Positions 19,859 through 40,636 of a stretch of DNA of 64,000 bases are shown piece after piece; within the stretch, counting starts at the first letter, position 1; every line of letters starts with the position of its first letter. The translations under genes were made by a program, and so were the position numbers. Origin of the DNA: an uncultured Oscillospiraceae bacterium. Its GTDB lineage: Bacteria; Bacillota; Clostridia; Oscillospirales; Ruminococcaceae. The notes beneath the pieces were generated by a model that saw only the letters and a program-made list of their open reading frames with translations, searched no databases and was not told the DNA's origin. The stretch is from positions 2,361 through 66,360 of the forward strand of contig CABUEI010000004.1 of the NCBI GenBank assembly GCA_902490585.1, written 5' to 3'.

Positions 19859-20791
19859 TTGTTACAAGATGTTGTATCCGTTTCGCTCCCTGTGAATGAA
19901 CGGATGAGAATAAAAAAGAATCATTTTGAACCGTATAACCTTACGGGTAATGAGAAGCGTATCTGTATTGTTACGGGAATACACGGAGATGAGCTTGAGG
20001 GACAGTATGTCTGCTATGAGCTTATCAGAAGACTCAGTGAGAACGGACATCTGCTGAGCGGTATTGTAGATATCTACCCTTCGATGAACCCTCTCGGAAT
20101 GGACTCTATCAAGCGTGAAATGCCTATATTTGATCTTGACATGAATATGATATTCCCGGGGTCTGAAACGGGTGCGGTAGCAGAGCACATTGCCGCCGCT
20201 ATCATGAACGATATCAAAGGCGCAGATATATGTATTGATATTCACGCAAGTAATATTTTTCTGCGTGAAATTCCGCAGGTGCGTATTTCGGAAGAAACCG
20301 CACCTAAGCTTTTGCCTTATGCAAAAATGCTGAATGTCGATTTTATATGGGTACATTCGAGCGTTACTGTTATGGAAGCTACGCTCTCGCACAGCCTTAA
20401 CAAAGCGGGAACACCTACTCTTGTCGCTGAAATGGGTGCAGGTATGCGAATTACAAAATCCTACGGCGATCAGCTTCTTGACGGTATATTCAATCTTATG
20501 TCAAAGATGGGAATATGGACGGGTGAAACGAAAAATGTGTCGCATCCCATAGTGTCTACCGACGGAAACGTGTCGTTTATATACTCGGATACATCTGGGA
20601 TTTTTATGCCTGCGATAAAGCACTGGGCGGGAATATCAAAGGGAGACCATATCGGTGATATCCTGAATTCACTCACAGGCACTGTTGAGCAGGAAATATT
20701 CGCACCGTGCAGCGGTATTGTGTTTACTCTGCGTGAATATCCTGTTGTATATGAAGGTTCATTGCTTGCCAGAATACTTGGAGGGTGCTGA
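19859..20791 (+). CDS. Succinylglutamate desuccinylase/aspartoacylase (AstE/AspA, M14-like) family protein, paralog 1
   Basis: TTG start with GGAGG 8 nt upstream; the ICIVTGIHGDELEG zinc-binding motif of the AstE/AspA family. Confidence 0.7.
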   Translation: MLQDVVSVSLPVNERMRIKKNHFEPYNLTGNEKRICIVTGIHGDELEGQYVCYELIRRLSENGHLLSGIVDIYPSMNPLGMDSIKREMPIFDLDMNMIFPGSETGAVAEHIAAAIMNDIKGADICIDIHASNIFLREIPQVRISEETAPKLLPYAKMLNVDFIWVHSSVTVMEATLSHSLNKAGTPTLVAEMGAGMRITKSYGDQLLDGIFNLMSKMGIWTGETKNVSHPIVSTDGNVSFIYSDTSGIFMPAIKHWAGISKGDHIGDILNSLTGTVEQEIFAPCSGIVFTLREYPVVYEGSLLARILGGC

Positions 20792-20792
20792 G

Positions 20793-21728
20793 ATGAATAA
20801 GGAAAATATAGTTACATTGAAGTCACCCTACCGTGACGATTTTGAGATAAACGGTTACAGATTCGGCAAGGGAGAGAAAACATGCTGTATAGTAGGTGCA
20901 ATGCGTGGTAACGAAGTTCAGCAGTTATATGTCTGCTCGCAGATTATCAGAGCACTTTCGGCAATTGAAAAGAAAGGTGATTTGGCTCACGGTAAGCAGA
21001 TAATTGTAATACCGTCGCTGAATCCGTTTTCAATGAACATACAACGCCGTTTCTGGTCTGTAGATAATACAGACCTTAACAGAATGTTCCCGGGTGATGC
21101 AAACGGAAAAACAACACAGAGAATTGCCGCAGGAATATTCGACTTTATAAAAGAATATCAGTACGGCATACAGTTCACTTCGTTCTATATATCCGGCGAT
21201 TTTATACCTCATGTAAGAATGATGGATACTGAGCATAAGAACATAGGACTTGCAAATCTTTTCGGATTGCCGTACATTCTTCTGAGAAAGCCGAAACCGT
21301 TTGATACCACAACGCTTAATTTCAACTGGCAGAATTCAAATACGAGTGCGTTTTCCGTGTACACAAACGAAACCGAACATATTGATGAGGGATCGGCACA
21401 TATCGCAGTAGGTGCTGTATTGAGATTCTTGTCAAGAATGGGCGTTATAAAATATCAGAGCCACGGCGGATATATGGCTACCACTCTTGAGGAAGAACAC
21501 CTGATGTCCGTACACGCCAAAAGCGGCGGAATATACCGCAGAATAAAACAACCGGGCGATGAAGTAGAGCAGGGTGATATAATGGCTGAGATCCTCGACC
21601 CGTTTGAAGGTACGGTTATCGAAGAAATCAAATCGCCATCCAACGGAATTGTATTCTTCGCACATAAATCTCCGCTTGTCCTTGAGAATTCGGTTGTATA
21701 TAAGATAATCAAAAGGTTGCATATATAA
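20793..21728 (+). CDS. Succinylglutamate desuccinylase/aspartoacylase (AstE/AspA) family protein, paralog 2
   Basis: ATG 20793 with GGAGGG upstream, 1 nt after the paralog-1 stop; CCIVGAMRGNEVQ motif; the C-terminal halves align with paralog 1. Confidence 0.7.
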   Translation: MNKENIVTLKSPYRDDFEINGYRFGKGEKTCCIVGAMRGNEVQQLYVCSQIIRALSAIEKKGDLAHGKQIIVIPSLNPFSMNIQRRFWSVDNTDLNRMFPGDANGKTTQRIAAGIFDFIKEYQYGIQFTSFYISGDFIPHVRMMDTEHKNIGLANLFGLPYILLRKPKPFDTTTLNFNWQNSNTSAFSVYTNETEHIDEGSAHIAVGAVLRFLSRMGVIKYQSHGGYMATTLEEEHLMSVHAKSGGIYRRIKQPGDEVEQGDIMAEILDPFEGTVIEEIKSPSNGIVFFAHKSPLVLENSVVYKIIKRLHI

Positions 21729-22165: not shown

Positions 22166-22196
22166 AAAAGCCGGGTAAAACGCCCGGCTTTTTTCT
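22166..22196. terminator. Bidirectional rho-independent terminator
   Basis: gccggg–taaaacg–cccggc hairpin flanked by an A-run on the 5' side and a T-run on the 3' side. It can terminate the minus-strand zinc-ribbon operon and any plus-strand transcript from the 22034-22062 promoter. Confidence 0.7.
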
Positions 22197-22244: not shown

Positions 22245-22958
22245 TCAGTTATTGTTGGGGTTTGCGGAACCGCAATTTGAACAGAATTTCTGTCCTGCTG
22301 TATTTCTGTTACCGCAAGCGCAGTACCAGTCGCCGTTAGCCTGAGGTATAGGTTGAACATTGTTCTGAGTTGCCTGACCGTAGGCGTTCTGTACAGGAGC
22401 CTGACCGTAAGAATTCTGTACGGGTGTTTGACCGTAAGTGTTCTGCATGGGTGCCTGACTGTAGTTGTTCTGAGCGGCAGATTGATTATATGTCTGCTGA
22501 TAGGGCTGAGGCTGACCGTAGGGGTTAGACATTGCGGCAATACGCTTGTTCTCGGCGTCTGCATTTGCGTTGGCAGTCCATACTTTATCAGCAAGTGCCT
22601 TGTATCCGAGAATGTTTGCGAAAACGCCGAAAGCCGTAATAATAACATCAATTATTCCGACTACCCACATAACAGTTGTCATGATTGATATCGTTGTGTT
22701 TAAAAGCTCATCTGGGCTTATATATGTTGAATCAAAATCCGAACTGCTTATAGAATCCTCTATAATGCTTTTTAATCCGTCAGAGCTTAATATTCCTGCA
22801 CCAAGGAATAAACCGATAAGATTGAAAAGTAAAAAGGCTGTAAATACCGTTAACAGTATATTGAGTATCATTATCGCTTTTCTCTTTCCTGAAGTCTGAA
22901 CTTTTTTGTATCCGAAATACAGAACGAGTACCGGAATACCGAAACCTAAAACTAACAT
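22245..22958 (-). CDS. Membrane protein with a Q/N/Y-rich repeat linker and a C-terminal zinc ribbon (paralog 3 of 3)
   Basis: 237 aa. N-terminal TM helices, an imperfect 9-aa repeat (YGQxPVQNx) and a C-terminal WYCACGNRN…FCSNCG motif; GAGAGG ribosome-binding site. Confidence 0.7.
   Translation of the reverse strand: MLVLGFGIPVLVLYFGYKKVQTSGKRKAIMILNILLTVFTAFLLFNLIGLFLGAGILSSDGLKSIIEDSISSSDFDSTYISPDELLNTTISIMTTVMWVVGIIDVIITAFGVFANILGYKALADKVWTANANADAENKRIAAMSNPYGQPQPYQQTYNQSAAQNNYSQAPMQNTYGQTPVQNSYGQAPVQNAYGQATQNNVQPIPQANGDWYCACGNRNTAGQKFCSNCGSANPNNN
22340..22530 (-). repeat. Imperfect ~27-nt in-frame tandem repeats encoding the Q/N/Y-rich segment
   Basis: Repeated ctgaccgtaRgNgttctgtacRgg units on the plus strand; this repeat also explains the spurious overlapping ORFs in other frames. 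Confidence 0.6.
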
Positions 22959-22984
22959 TTTAGTTCCTCTCTTTCAATAAATCT

Positions 22985-23485
22985 TTATTTTTTAAGGCTG
23001 CCGCAGTAAACACAGAACTTGTTTTCGGGTTCGTTGTATTTTCCGCAACTGCCGCATTGCCATGGCGTTGATGTTTCCGCAGTTGTAAAGTGCATCTGTT
23101 CATCACCTGAGCGATTCACATAGGTATTTCTTACAACCTGTGTGTTTCTCGTATGCTGTTCTTTCAGCGCCGATTGTGTAAGTTCATCGTTAATTACAGC
23201 TTTATATCCTAAGACACAGGCGATTATTCCCAACACAACTATAGCTCCGTAATACAGTGCTACCGCACCGTAGGTAAACGAAGTGAAGAAGTAAACAGTT
23301 CCCGATGAGTGTACAAAATCATAATACGCAGAAGAAATTCCGATAAGCACAATAATCTTTAACGAAATAAGTACGGTAAGTATTATGGTCATTACTTTTA
23401 TTGCGGTACGCTTGCTCAGTGTCGGATAGCCTTTATATGAACTCCACACGATAAGAACCGCAATGGCAAGTCCTATACTTAGCAT
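22985..23485 (-). CDS. Membrane protein with a C-terminal zinc ribbon (paralog 2 of 3)
   Basis: 166 aa; TM helices; LGYKAVINDELTQ linker; C-terminal WQCGSCGKYN…FCVYCG motif; AGGAGG ribosome-binding site. Confidence 0.7.
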   Translation of the reverse strand: MLSIGLAIAVLIVWSSYKGYPTLSKRTAIKVMTIILTVLISLKIIVLIGISSAYYDFVHSSGTVYFFTSFTYGAVALYYGAIVVLGIIACVLGYKAVINDELTQSALKEQHTRNTQVVRNTYVNRSGDEQMHFTTAETSTPWQCGSCGKYNEPENKFCVYCGSLKK

Positions 23486-23494
23486 ATTTCCTCC

Positions 23495-24160
23495 TTACTT
23501 GTTTTCGGGTGTATTCACGGGAGCATCGTTATTTAAAACAGCTTTCTTTGCTCCGCACTGTGCACAGAAACCTCCGCCCATATCCTTGTTTACAGTTCCG
23601 CATACCGTGCACTGCCATGTGCTGTACTGAGGCTGAGGTTCGGCGGGACGGGGTACAGGATTGTTATTTTTGTACTGTTGCTGTAAAGCCTGTGCTTTTG
23701 CATACGCTTTCTGAGAAAGTTCCTTGTCTGCAACGGTAGAATATCCGACTACGCACATGATAATTCCTGCAACGATCGTAGCAATCAGAACTATAAAATA
23801 TGACAAGTATATTGCATATTCGCTTGTTCCGGGCGTAAATGCCGAGAAATTGTAACCTGTGAAGTAATCGTAAGGATTGAAGAGTAATCCCCAGAGGTCC
23901 ACTTTAAACAGCAATAACAGCGAGTCAAAGATCGTAAGTAAAATTGTTATGGTTGTAAGTGCTCTTTTCTTTCCGACTGTAGGTGATTTTCTGTACTTTA
24001 TCGCTAATATAAGAATAGTAACAATAAATACTACAATAGCCAGATAGAAAATAAAACCGTCAAAAAGATTTGACAAAAGTTTGTCTGTTGATGTGCGGTA
24101 GCCGTCATAGTCGTTCAGATACTGTGAAAGCCCGTTTGATAATGCGAGTAATTTAGCCAT
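23495..24160 (-). CDS. Membrane protein with a C-terminal zinc ribbon (paralog 1 of 3)
   Basis: 221 aa; TM helices; VGYSTVADKELSQ linker; C-terminal WQCTVCGTVN…FCAQCG motif; AGGAGG ribosome-binding site. Confidence 0.7.
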   Translation of the reverse strand: MAKLLALSNGLSQYLNDYDGYRTSTDKLLSNLFDGFIFYLAIVVFIVTILILAIKYRKSPTVGKKRALTTITILLTIFDSLLLLFKVDLWGLLFNPYDYFTGYNFSAFTPGTSEYAIYLSYFIVLIATIVAGIIMCVVGYSTVADKELSQKAYAKAQALQQQYKNNNPVPRPAEPQPQYSTWQCTVCGTVNKDMGGGFCAQCGAKKAVLNNDAPVNTPENK

Positions 24161-24217
24161 ATTGGTTCCTCCTTAAATAGTCAAAAGCTAATATCTGTAA
24201 AAGCTTTCTTGGTTGTG

Positions 24218-24246
24218 ATTTTATCACATTATGCACGCTTTGTCAA
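24218..24246 (-). promoter_or_regulatory. Sigma-A promoter for the zinc-ribbon membrane-protein operon
   Basis: On the minus strand: TTGACA, 17-nt spacer, TAAAAT. Confidence 0.55.
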
Positions 24247-24261
24247 TCAAAGTAAAAAATA

Positions 24262-24290
24262 TTGACATTCCGTCCGTGCGGATATATAAT
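24262..24290 (+). promoter_or_regulatory. Consensus sigma-A promoter for galE
   Basis: TTGACA (24262-24267), 17-nt spacer, TATAAT (24285-24290). Confidence 0.6.
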
Positions 24291-36901: not shown

Positions 36902-37327
36902 ATGGATTTTAAAGACGAATTTGATTTTATATCAGAAAAAGCAAAACAGCTTACTGATACAGGCATACGCAAAGCTGACGAGGTAATCAGTGTTTCTAAG
37001 ATGAAACTTAGATGTATTCAGCTTGATGCTCTGATAAAAGCTAAATATACCGAACTCGGCAGAACTATGTACGGTATGGTTAAAAACGACAGTTCCGATG
37101 CCGACAGAATTGCACAGGCAGTAATGGAAATAGACCACCTCTATAAGAAAATGGCACAGTACAATGCCAGAATAGAGATGATGAAAAAGATAGTTACTTG
37201 TCCCGTATGCGGAACAAAGAACAAGTTCAGCAACACTTATTGTACCGCTTGTATGCACAAGCTTGTGTCAACCGATGAAGAACCTGAGGATTACGCATTT
37301 AATCCCGAGGACGCTGAGAACGAATAA
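36902..37327 (+). CDS. Hypothetical coiled-coil protein with a C-terminal zinc ribbon
   Basis: 141 aa; C-terminal CPVCGTKN…YCTACMHK motif; acidic tail. Confidence 0.55.
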   Translation: MDFKDEFDFISEKAKQLTDTGIRKADEVISVSKMKLRCIQLDALIKAKYTELGRTMYGMVKNDSSDADRIAQAVMEIDHLYKKMAQYNARIEMMKKIVTCPVCGTKNKFSNTYCTACMHKLVSTDEEPEDYAFNPEDAENE

Positions 37328-38659: not shown

Positions 38660-40384
38660 TCAATCGTTGAACTTAGCCATAAGCTCCTTGATAAGCTCCT
38701 GAACCTTGTCTGCCGTTTCCTCAACGGGAACCTTGTAAGAGAAGCTCTTATCCCTTGCAGAGATCTCACAGCAGTTATCCTTCAGGTTTCTGGGGCTTAC
38801 GATAACTCTCAGCGGTACGCCGAGAAGGTCTGCGTCAGAGAACATAACGCCTGCGCTTACCTGTCTGTCGTCATAGATAACCTCGGCACCTGCGTTCTGT
38901 AAAGCGTCATACAGCTTATCTGCACAAGCCTTTACTTCTGCGTCATCTGAACGTACAGCGCAGATATGAACCTGCCACGGTGCGATAGGCATAGGCCAGA
39001 TAGGACCGTAATCATCGTGGTGAGCCTCGCATACAGAAGCCGCAAGTCTGCCGACACCGATACCGTAACAACCCATGATAGGTGTCTTTTCCTCGCCGTT
39101 GCTGTCAAGGTAAGTCATACCCATAGTCTTTGTGTACTTTGTGCCAAGCTGGAATATGTTGCCGACCTCAATACCTCTTGAAATAGAAATTGAGTGCTTG
39201 TGGCAGTTGGGGCAGATACCGCCGTCAAGGATCTTTGCAAAGTCGTGATATTCAACATTGCCGCAGTCACGGTCGATGTCAAGACCTGTGTAGTGATATT
39301 CTTCCTTATTTGCGCCGCAGGAAAGGTTGTTTGTATTCTGAAGAGAAGTATCAAACAGAACGGTCATATTTTCGGGAAGACCTACAGGTCCGATATATCC
39401 TGCGTTAAGACCGCATTCTTCTGTGATTACAGCGGGGTGTATCTCACAGCCGAGGAAGTTACGGAGCTTCGTTTCGTTTACATCAATGTCGCCTCTTGTG
39501 AATACGACAATATAGCTGTCATCGGCATTTCTCTGGTATACAACTGCCTTACAGCTCTTTTCCTTAGGCGTGTGTAAAAAGTCACATATTTCTTCAATTG
39601 TATGGATATTAGGAGTATGAACAAGTTCCATAGGTGCGGAAACTTCATCTCTGGTGTTCTCGATAATGCTGTCTGCGGCTTCCATATTCGCATTGAAACC
39701 ACATTCGTGACAGCTTGCTATTGTATCCTCGCCTACGGGTGTAAGGAGCATGAATTCGTGCGAAATACTACCGCCCATCATACCGGAATCGGACTTGACC
39801 GAGATTACCTCGGGAACACCTGCACGTCTGAATATGTTTTCATAAGCCTTGTGACACTTATCGTAATACTGCTCAAGATCTTCCTGCGATGTGTGGAAGG
39901 AGTAAGCGTCCTTCATTGTGAACTCGCGTACTCTGATAAGGCCGCCTCTCGGACGAGCTTCATCACGGAACTTTGTCTGTATCTGATAAATCATGAAGGG
40001 GTACTTCGTGTAGCTCTTGCCGTATTCACGCACAAGATGCACAGCGGCTTCCTCGTGTGTCATACCGAGTACCATAGGCATTCTGTTGCGGTCTGTGAAA
40101 CGTAACAGTTCACTGCCGATGCTTTCGTATCTGCCTGATTCCTGCCAGAGTGAAGCGGGCATAACAACAGGGAACTGTACTTCCTGTCCGTCTATCTTGT
40201 CCATTTCTTCTCTGATGATCTGTTCAATCTTCTTTGTGATTCTCTTTGTGGGCGTGTATGACGAGAAGATACCGTTAGCCATATACTTGATATAGCCGCC
40301 TCTCACCATAATTGCGTGGCTGTCAATCTGACAGTCCGAAGGTCTTTCTTTAAAACGGTCGCCGACCAGCTTGTCGAGTTTCAT
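38660..40384 (-). CDS. proS: Proline--tRNA ligase (bacterial type with editing domain)
   Basis: The ORF track begins at 40525, inside the leader. ATG 40384 (MKLDKLVG…) with AGGAGG 8 nt upstream is preferred. Class II aaRS motifs, an INS editing domain and a C-terminal anticodon-binding domain. Confidence 0.85.
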   Translation of the reverse strand: MKLDKLVGDRFKERPSDCQIDSHAIMVRGGYIKYMANGIFSSYTPTKRITKKIEQIIREEMDKIDGQEVQFPVVMPASLWQESGRYESIGSELLRFTDRNRMPMVLGMTHEEAAVHLVREYGKSYTKYPFMIYQIQTKFRDEARPRGGLIRVREFTMKDAYSFHTSQEDLEQYYDKCHKAYENIFRRAGVPEVISVKSDSGMMGGSISHEFMLLTPVGEDTIASCHECGFNANMEAADSIIENTRDEVSAPMELVHTPNIHTIEEICDFLHTPKEKSCKAVVYQRNADDSYIVVFTRGDIDVNETKLRNFLGCEIHPAVITEECGLNAGYIGPVGLPENMTVLFDTSLQNTNNLSCGANKEEYHYTGLDIDRDCGNVEYHDFAKILDGGICPNCHKHSISISRGIEVGNIFQLGTKYTKTMGMTYLDSNGEEKTPIMGCYGIGVGRLAASVCEAHHDDYGPIWPMPIAPWQVHICAVRSDDAEVKACADKLYDALQNAGAEVIYDDRQVSAGVMFSDADLLGVPLRVIVSPRNLKDNCCEISARDKSFSYKVPVEETADKVQELIKELMAKFND

Positions 40385-40387
40385 TGC

Positions 40388-40636
40388 ATATCCTCCTGAA
40401 TTCCGGGCATAAAAAAAGCCCGAAGCATTAAATTTGCTTAGGGCGAAACTTTGTTCCGTGGTACCACCTAAATTCGGTATAACCGCACTTGTATCTCTGT
40501 AACGGGAGAAACCGGTAACACTCATCGTGTACAGCTCAAAGACGGGTTCGATAAAACCTTGTCGGGAGCTTGCACCAACCGCTCTTTCTCTGTGACGCAG
40601 ATTTATCTACTGTTTCTTGTCATAGCTTTTCTGTAT
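40388..40636 (-). promoter_or_regulatory. T-box riboswitch leader of proS
   Basis: The minus-strand RNA contains the AGAGA motif, the T-box sequence AAUUUAGGUGGUACCACGG and a terminator (GCCCUAAGCA…UGCUUCGGGC + U7) directly upstream of the proS ribosome-binding site. The candidate specifier is a Pro codon (CCG/CCC) within …GCUCCCGAC…. Confidence 0.75.

Follow-up and report, generated by a model that had tools for sequence, protein, structure and literature searches.

Among the hypothetical proteins of Firmicutes, small membrane proteins that carry a zinc ribbon on the cytoplasmic side are common; those with the ribbon on a low-complexity tether are very common and have, to our knowledge, almost never been studied. 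The operon considered here encodes three proteins that appear to be of this kind, A, B and C, on the minus strand of a 64,000-nucleotide (nt) stretch of contig CABUEI010000004.1 (assembly GCA_902490585.1) from an uncultured Oscillospiraceae bacterium; the whole stretch is called the window below. Among the closest described systems is ArnA of Sulfolobus acidocaldarius, whose RanBP2-type zinc finger, borne on a disordered linker, was co-crystallised with ArnB (PMC12852372; see also PMC6509490). The finger docks on ArnB via a small, mainly hydrophobic interface of its C-terminal hairpin (PMC12852372). In Bacillus subtilis, YdjI, which joins an SPFH domain to a stretch of low complexity plus a zinc finger, depends on YdjG and YdjH, both membrane proteins, for its membrane localisation (PMC8581546), and YdjG bears a zinc ribbon (PMC9239133).

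ArnA (PDB 8s05, 5a8i) shares with the A-B-C family both the finger on a disordered linker and the signature W-x-C-x2-CG-x2-N-x6-FC-x2-CGA-K. It differs in being soluble and archaeal, in combining an N-terminal finger with an FHA domain, and in having neither transmembrane (TM) helices nor a set of three paralogs; its vWA partner ArnB has no counterpart near the A-B-C operon. The PspA–YdjGHI system resembles the arrangement proposed below in that a soluble protein owes its membrane anchoring to zinc-ribbon membrane proteins, YdjG with YdjH, whereas the ribbon of YdjG is N-terminal and similarity beyond the ribbon was neither tested nor seen. No PspA or SPFH (Band_7_1) gene lies in or beside the operon, and the window holds no SPFH homolog, a tblastn search with a YdjI-like protein having matched just the ribbons. 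YdjGHI serves as a functional precedent, not as evidence of membership. Three Pfam families, Zn_Ribbon_1 (PF13240), DZR (PF12773) and Zn_ribbon_RanBP (PF00641), describe the same Cys4 two-knuckle ribbon and are all matched below threshold; they cover the ~25-residue ribbon alone and are silent on function, and the three-helix TM domain belongs to no family.

The genome scan yielded an observation of its own. Many Clostridia metagenome-assembled genomes (MAGs; L017-L040, e.g., L018:4894-6291) encode proteins of ~450 amino acids (aa) that combine an SPFH (Band_7_1) domain with a Q-rich low-complexity stretch and three to four C-terminal ribbons, an architecture resembling that of YdjI. Their ribbons read WKCxCG..N..FCxQCGAKKP and are 45-64% identical to that of A, a likeness partly selected by the search pattern.

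What is new in A-B-C is an undescribed domain family of three TM helices, a fixed three-paralog operon, and the variation of a YGQ repeat within a species; the Cys4 RanBP2-like ribbon, the low-complexity tethers and the small TM anchors are of kinds already known. No account of the family was found in the literature, and A, B and C reached no family model in Pfam, NCBIfam, PADLOC or PHROG, library matches in the TM region (DUF3810, MAG0920, Cas5b and others) being compositional noise. The description in the initial annotation of an uncharacterised, non-enzymatic, triplicated membrane family in one operon is borne out, and no known family, anti-sigma factors included, claims it. As to function, the tentative reading adopted here, to which we give somewhat less than an even chance, is that the three proteins form a heteromeric membrane anchor whose three tethered zinc-ribbon heads recruit a cytoplasmic partner.

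Three paralogs in one operon

The open reading frame (ORF) listing of the window places A, B and C consecutively on the minus strand, from 24160 to 22245 (Table 1). They form one operon: they share a single conserved promoter of sigma-A type, are separated by gaps of 9 nt (A/B) and 26 nt (B/C), and end at one terminator. Promoter and terminator had both been proposed beforehand and were recovered by scans. The promoter has 11 of 12 consensus positions plus the TG, and the divergent galE promoter, which lies back to back with it, has 12 of 12; in nine aligned orthologous intergenic regions the −35 and −10 elements of both are invariant while the flanking sequence diverges. A T-rich tail follows the terminator hairpin, whose stem of 10-11 bp holds six G-C pairs. 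The operon promoter is conserved and of the housekeeping (sigma-A) type, that of the primary sigma factor. The suggested link to sporulation did not survive: no finding points to it, the promoter reads TTGACA / TGnTAAAAT, and the idea was dropped as unsupported. Nor did the region of the 5′ untranslated region of the operon show a riboswitch or leader RNA. The strong AGGAGG ribosome-binding site ascribed to each gene is present, as AAGGAGG, upstream of A and of B, where that of B falls in the 9-nt gap after the A stop codon; C has the weaker GAGAGGAA, with no clean AGGAGG.

The three proteins can be aligned across their whole length and are significantly similar by BLASTP, with E values of 3e-23 for A and B (34% identity over 170 aa), 8e-10 for B and C, and 3e-8 for A and C. 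They are true paralogs, as first proposed, and the coordinates given for them were confirmed. Their common order is helix 1, a basic loop Y-K-x-x-(P/Q)-T-x-G-K-R, helix 2, an acidic loop, helix 3, a linker and a terminal ribbon. In all three, helix 3 ends in (V/L)GY(K/S)(A/T), within the juxtamembrane motifs VGYSTVADKE, LGYKAVINDE and LGYKALADKV. Two glycines, G86 and G93 (B numbering), are invariant across the family and give TM3 a G-x6-G face of the kind usual in packed helices.

Membrane topology and the outer loop of A

Hydrophobicity gives three helices per protein, and the AlphaFold2 (AF2) models of A and B agree with each other in showing three long helices, low-confidence linkers and a small β-ribbon. 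In the model of A the juxtamembrane extension (residues 146-165) is helical. The linkers are modelled as disordered, B residues 108-138 having a predicted local distance difference test (pLDDT) score below 50, and a Foldseek search of the PDB gave the TM domain no significant match. Charge bias is what assigns the topology: averaged over 27 family members, the net charge is +4.6 in loop 1, −0.8 in loop 2, +1.4 in the 20 residues following TM3 and −0.9 in the N-terminal part. By the positive-inside rule, this distribution predicts an N-out/C-in protein with linker and Cys4 ribbon in the cytoplasm. It thereby answers the question, raised in the initial annotation, of the side on which the ribbon lies, and a cytoplasmic location is what the zinc site leads one to expect.

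On the opposite face, A stands out. Its outer loop with the conserved NPYDYFT motif (NPYDYFT...PGTSEYA) and its N-tail (DKLLSNLFDGF) are nearly invariant; the ribbon WQCTVCGTVNKDMGGGFCAQCG (182-203) follows its Q/P-rich linker. This strong conservation of outer loop and N-tail suggests a core role for A among the subunits and perhaps a contact on the outer side. The same near-invariance, together with the cytoplasmic placement of the ribbon, would also suit a device that signals across the membrane in the manner of anti-sigma factors or sensors, in which the outer loop of A senses a signal and a cytoplasmic regulator held by the ribbons is released or sequestered. We regard such a device as improbable. 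No sigma factor or regulator gene adjoins the operon in any locus, the promoter is of housekeeping type, and the proteins lack the N-terminal H-x3-C-x2-C, their ribbon being C-terminal; a homology search, the check proposed at the outset, returned no anti-sigma match, and no other family above threshold, in Pfam or NCBIfam. The specific candidate of a zinc-binding anti-sigma factor (ZAS) was rejected on the missing H-x3-C-x2-C, the C-terminal Cys4 ribbon and the lack of an adjacent sigma gene.

The zinc ribbon

The C-terminal ribbon attributed to the three proteins is present in each, as W-x-C-x(1-2)-CG-x2-N-x(6-7)-FC-x2-CG, with one correction: the first knuckle of C is C-x-C, not C-x2-C. The RanBP2 pattern W-x-C-x(2,4)-C-x3-N-x6-C-x2-C is fitted exactly by B (WQCGSCGKYNEPENKFCVYC), while A departs from it by x7 in the second spacer and C by x1 in the first knuckle. 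Pfam PF00641, with a gathering threshold of 27 bits, scores B at 26.6 and A at 8.5 and does not match C, so that all fall below threshold; just 3 of 27 family members match it at E ≤ 0.01, and precomputed annotation lists it for the B orthologs P0001 and P0002. Each subfamily keeps a ribbon signature of its own, for example CG..NPN ending in C.

A profile built from 18 family ribbons was searched against all PDB sequences, and its best match is the Sulfolobus ArnA zinc finger (8s05_C, 9e-9; 5a8i_A, 1.4e-8), followed by a double-zinc-ribbon protein and then by rubredoxin knuckles. The fingers of Nup153, ZNF265 and Npl4 match marginally. Structural comparison points the same way without reaching significance: in Foldseek searches with the A model the sole high-probability local matches are zf-RanBP domains, all at E > 0.6, among them RanBP2 ZnF7 (probability 0.9, root-mean-square deviation 0.9 Å over 25 columns). 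The RanBP2-type fold consists of two orthogonal β-hairpins set around one Zn; in the AF2 models the ribbon segment forms short strands at pLDDT ~70-76. The ribbon is therefore probably of RanBP2-like/Zn_Ribbon_1 type, and closest to the ArnA finger.

A ribbon of this type raises the possibility that the ligand is a nucleic acid, the ribbons binding single-stranded RNA or DNA in the manner of ZRANB2/FUS-type fingers and holding transcripts or the nucleoid at the membrane. The RNA-binding RanBP2 subgroup has an aromatic residue and Arg-Arg after the conserved Asn, and here the stretch after Asn reads E-P-E-N-K, K-D-M-G-G-G or T-A-G-Q-K. Some RanBP2-type fingers do bind single-stranded RNA (cited in PMC6509490), and ZNF265/ZRANB2 is among the marginal matches (E 0.12), but the closest solved relative, ArnA, docks on a protein and showed no DNA binding (PMC12852372). 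Such a nucleic-acid tether is in our estimation quite unlikely, and docking on a protein remains the preferred role for the ribbons.

As a separate observation, many family members carry an extra internal CxxC...CxxC ribbon right after the juxtamembrane segment, which is absent from A, B and C of the window (examples are L014:5989-6690, L016:862-1563, P0028, and P0098/P0102/P0108/P0113/P0115/P0119/P0198/P0202).

Linkers and the YGQ repeat

All three linkers had been described as rich in Q, N, P and Y. This is so for C, whereas the linker of A is shorter and Q/P-rich and that of B is polar and charged, not Q/N/Y-rich. The strong enrichment is thus restricted to the C linker, which holds 17% Q, 14% N and 9% Y, against 3.2, 4.6 and 3.5% in the window as background, with ~4% each of K+R and D+E and 8% proline. 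The 9-aa YGQxPVQNx tandem repeat reported in it was recovered by Tandem Repeats Finder (TRF; Table 1). In every lineage examined, enrichment in Q, N, Y, A and P and a scarcity of charged residues mark the C-like linkers, though their sequences differ. C of the window repeats a 9-aa unit, that of a sister species one of 7 aa (QNPYGQA) and that of a more distant species one of 8 aa (NNGYGQPM); a YGQ core is found in all.

The sister species, a common gut species, allows this variation to be followed within a single species. Among 65 complete C proteins (C genes of L001-L004, L041 and L043-L055, e.g., L001:6001-6744) there are 3-9 YGQ units and lengths of 218-261 aa, mostly in 7-aa steps; A and B, where complete in the same loci, have fixed lengths of 221 and 169 aa. 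Likewise, the 93% identical P0034 is one 9-aa unit longer than C of the window. Composition and tyrosine motif are thus kept, and length can drift freely. The copy-number variation amounts to a natural series on the effect of linker length and tyrosine count.

Such linkers invite the idea of a membrane-tethered condensate or self-assembly scaffold, in which the Tyr-Gly-Gln-rich linker of C, helped by A, supplies multivalent “stickers” that would gather the complex into patches of membrane or assemblies formed by phase separation, and the ribbons are secondary. The charge-poor Q/N/Y/A/P composition in all lineages and the retention of the YGQ core by 7-, 8- and 9-aa units speak for it. Yet 3-9 copies within one species look as if length were loosely constrained, frequent proline disfavours amyloid, and B has no such linker; we consider this scaffold unlikely. 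The term “prion-like” used initially suits, by composition, C and its relatives only. Prion-like domains are usually described as having a long core that is Q/N-rich, charge-poor and proline-poor, and as forming aggregates that propagate themselves; the C linker is Q/N-rich and charge-poor with 8% proline, several C-like linkers contain 8-13%, and A and B do not fit.

A bolder version takes its cue from the FET proteins (FUS/EWS/TAF15), which join a low-complexity region rich in tyrosine, of [S/G]Y[S/G]Q type, to a RanBP2-type zinc finger. YGQ units at regular spacing and such a finger occur in C also, but the protein lacks RRM and RGG, is membrane-anchored, and shows no detectable homology beyond the finger, so the likeness is almost certainly convergent. 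It is very improbable that A-B-C is a bacterial, membrane-anchored FET counterpart, in which the YGQ repeats of C seed a condensate on the membrane and the three ribbons select its client proteins or RNAs; if true, the threshold for condensation would be tuned by the strain-to-strain change in repeat number (3-9 units).

Conservation and distribution of the triple

The ratios of nonsynonymous to synonymous substitution (dN/dS), from pairs with unsaturated synonymous sites, lie at 0.07-0.09 in A, 0.05-0.13 in B and 0.14-0.20 in C, and conservation is strongest in A. All three are thus real genes under purifying selection. The order A-B-C is found in 16 of 16 first-round loci (those carrying a full-length relative) and in 13 of 16 further loci, the other three showing B-C, or B-C with a truncated A, at a contig end. 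Two loci with the complete triple have one gene split or cut, namely A in two ORFs in L015 and a late start of B in L050. The triple is kept down to ~43% identity in A (L014, L016), and it is kept also when the downstream neighbour switches from AstE/AspA-family genes to alanine racemase. Upstream, galE is divergently transcribed at every locus; the neighbours across loci are galE, NUDIX, thioesterase (4HBT), melibiase, and AstE/AspA or alanine racemase. The contig of L015 is itself an oddity: labelled Sodaliphilus sp., a Bacteroidales genus, it carries A-B-C with A split (L015:6001-7793) and looks mis-binned, with a frameshift or assembly error.

Word-indexed searches returned 4 relatives of B, 29 of A and 62 of C, all unnamed or called “hypothetical protein.” An exhaustive HMMER search with a profile of the three subfamilies gave 2056 matches at E ≤ 1e-3 among 1.84 billion cluster representatives; the cluster counts that follow come from the best 150 of these 2056, with clusters defined at 50% identity. 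Most match the ribbon alone, often repeatedly, in multi-ribbon bacterial proteins (Zn_Ribbon_1/DZR). About 35-40 are full-length, with three TM helices and a terminal ribbon; many of these have a second, internal ribbon just past TM3, and they sort into A-like, B-like and C-like groups plus a few unassigned. Some distant members obtain the same score with each of the three subfamily profiles, and these may represent single-copy types.

This distribution bears on whether the proteins act together at all. They could be three redundant, independent small membrane proteins, for instance with envelope-stress or membrane-stabilising roles, the tandem merely recording duplication history; the common architecture is consistent with this, as are the possible single-copy types. 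Redundant gene copies are usually lost or variable in number, however, and in this family every locus whose contig spans all three genes retains them in the one order, each member being under purifying selection with subfamily-specific signatures. Redundancy accordingly strikes us as rather unlikely, and the separately recognisable A-, B- and C-like subfamilies among distant clusters count for the heteromer.

Named relatives come from MAGs called Ruminococcaceae, Oscillospiraceae, “Ruminiclostridium” or Clostridia, in keeping with the Ruminococcaceae among which relatives were expected. Their stated sources are the animal and human gut (Hadza people, water deer rectum, human gut metagenome). 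A metagenome scan with distant A-like proteins gave no match, and a second metagenome scan gave the common L001-type species only. No relatives occur in viral contigs or plasmids, and an origin from mobile elements was rejected. Class I holins, small proteins of ~100 aa with three TM helices, N-out/C-in topology and a charged tail, were rejected on several counts: the flanks are housekeeping genes and not a phage lysis cassette with an endolysin, there is no PHROG match and no viral relative, and the proteins have 166-237 aa. For anti-phage defence, PADLOC gave noise-level matches only (E ≥ 0.002 over short stretches), and this candidate was dropped too.

A proposed membrane anchor with three docking heads

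In the arrangement that we prefer, A, B and C would be co-transcribed and co-translated, a single transcript yielding them in fixed proportion, and would insert N-out/C-in into the cytoplasmic membrane. Their three-helix domains would pack into a hetero-oligomeric anchor, a step that the G-x6-G face of TM3 fits. From this anchor every subunit would extend a short helical juxtamembrane stalk and then a flexible low-complexity tether of ~40 aa in A, ~45 aa in B and ~90 aa (variable) in C, each tipped by a small Cys4 RanBP2-like ribbon acting as a weak, mostly hydrophobic protein-docking head. Three unlike heads of different reach could then capture one or more cytoplasmic partners and hold them at the membrane by avidity, while the outer loop and N-tail of A may couple the anchor to something outside the membrane. 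In this model we infer that a heteromer forms, that the ribbons dock on protein and that there is a partner, and “scaffold,” as suggested initially, is still the best guess at function.

Several points weigh against such an anchor. No partner gene is encoded in or adjoining the operon, and every relative is MAG-derived. The likeness to ArnA spans ~27 residues only, of a very common fold; the AF2 monomer models are of low confidence, with pLDDT 60 for B and 63 for A; and RanBP2-type fingers are able to bind RNA too. Each of the rival explanations, for its part, finds some support and meets more evidence against it.

To a specialist A-B-C will be tidy, not surprising, and it makes no open question directly testable. 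It is nonetheless a compact and well-defined example of a little-studied class, drawn from abundant uncultured Oscillospiraceae of the human and animal gut. Once the ligands of its ribbons were found, “zinc ribbon domain-containing” hypothetical proteins would have a first way into their function, and RanBP2-like fingers would be tested as general prokaryotic docking heads, as in ArnA–ArnB.

Features of the locus and neighbouring genes

Table 1. Coordinates of the A-B-C operon in the window and domain layout of its products (residue numbers in the last three rows)
Feature	Position	Strand	Details
Gene A	23495-24160	−	221 aa
Gene B	22985-23485	−	166 aa
Gene C	22245-22958	−	237 aa
A-B-C operon promoter	24218..24246	−	−35 TTGACA, 17-nt spacer, extended −10 TGnTAAAAT
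Divergent galE promoter	24262..24290	+	TTGACA-17-TATAAT; same intergenic region as operon promoter
Intrinsic terminator-like hairpin	22166..22192	−	~50 nt past C stop codon; bidirectional
27-nt (9-aa) tandem repeat in C	22371..22472	−	TRF, 3.8 copies; encodes YGQxPVQNx units of C linker
A domains			acidic N-tail ~35 aa (predicted outside); TM ~36-58, 62-85, 113-144; juxtamembrane helix 146-165
B domains			three TM helices; polar linker 95-140; ribbon WQCGSCGKYNEPENKFCVYCG (142-162)
C domains			three TM helices; acidic outer loop; Q/N/Y/A/P-rich linker ~90 aa; ribbon WYCACGNRNTAGQKFCSNCG (211-230)

Next to the operon, the plus-strand ORFs 19859-20791 and 20685-21728 have counterparts in orthologous loci, each of them with Pfam AstE_AspA_cat, of the succinylglutamate desuccinylase/aspartoacylase family. 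As mechanically listed the two ORFs overlap, and the second probably starts further downstream. A comparable correction concerns the 621-aa ORF 38660-40525 on the minus strand, whose listed 5′ end is overlapped by a T-box leader at window 40436-40632 (−; Rfam RF00230, 108.6 bits); given this overlap, its real start presumably lies further downstream than listed. Finally, a 141-aa ORF at window 36902-37327 (+) has a C-terminal CxxC...CxxC ribbon, VTCPVCGTKNKFSNTYCTAC, and a sub-threshold DUF7577-like match; outside the ribbon it is unrelated to the A-B-C family.

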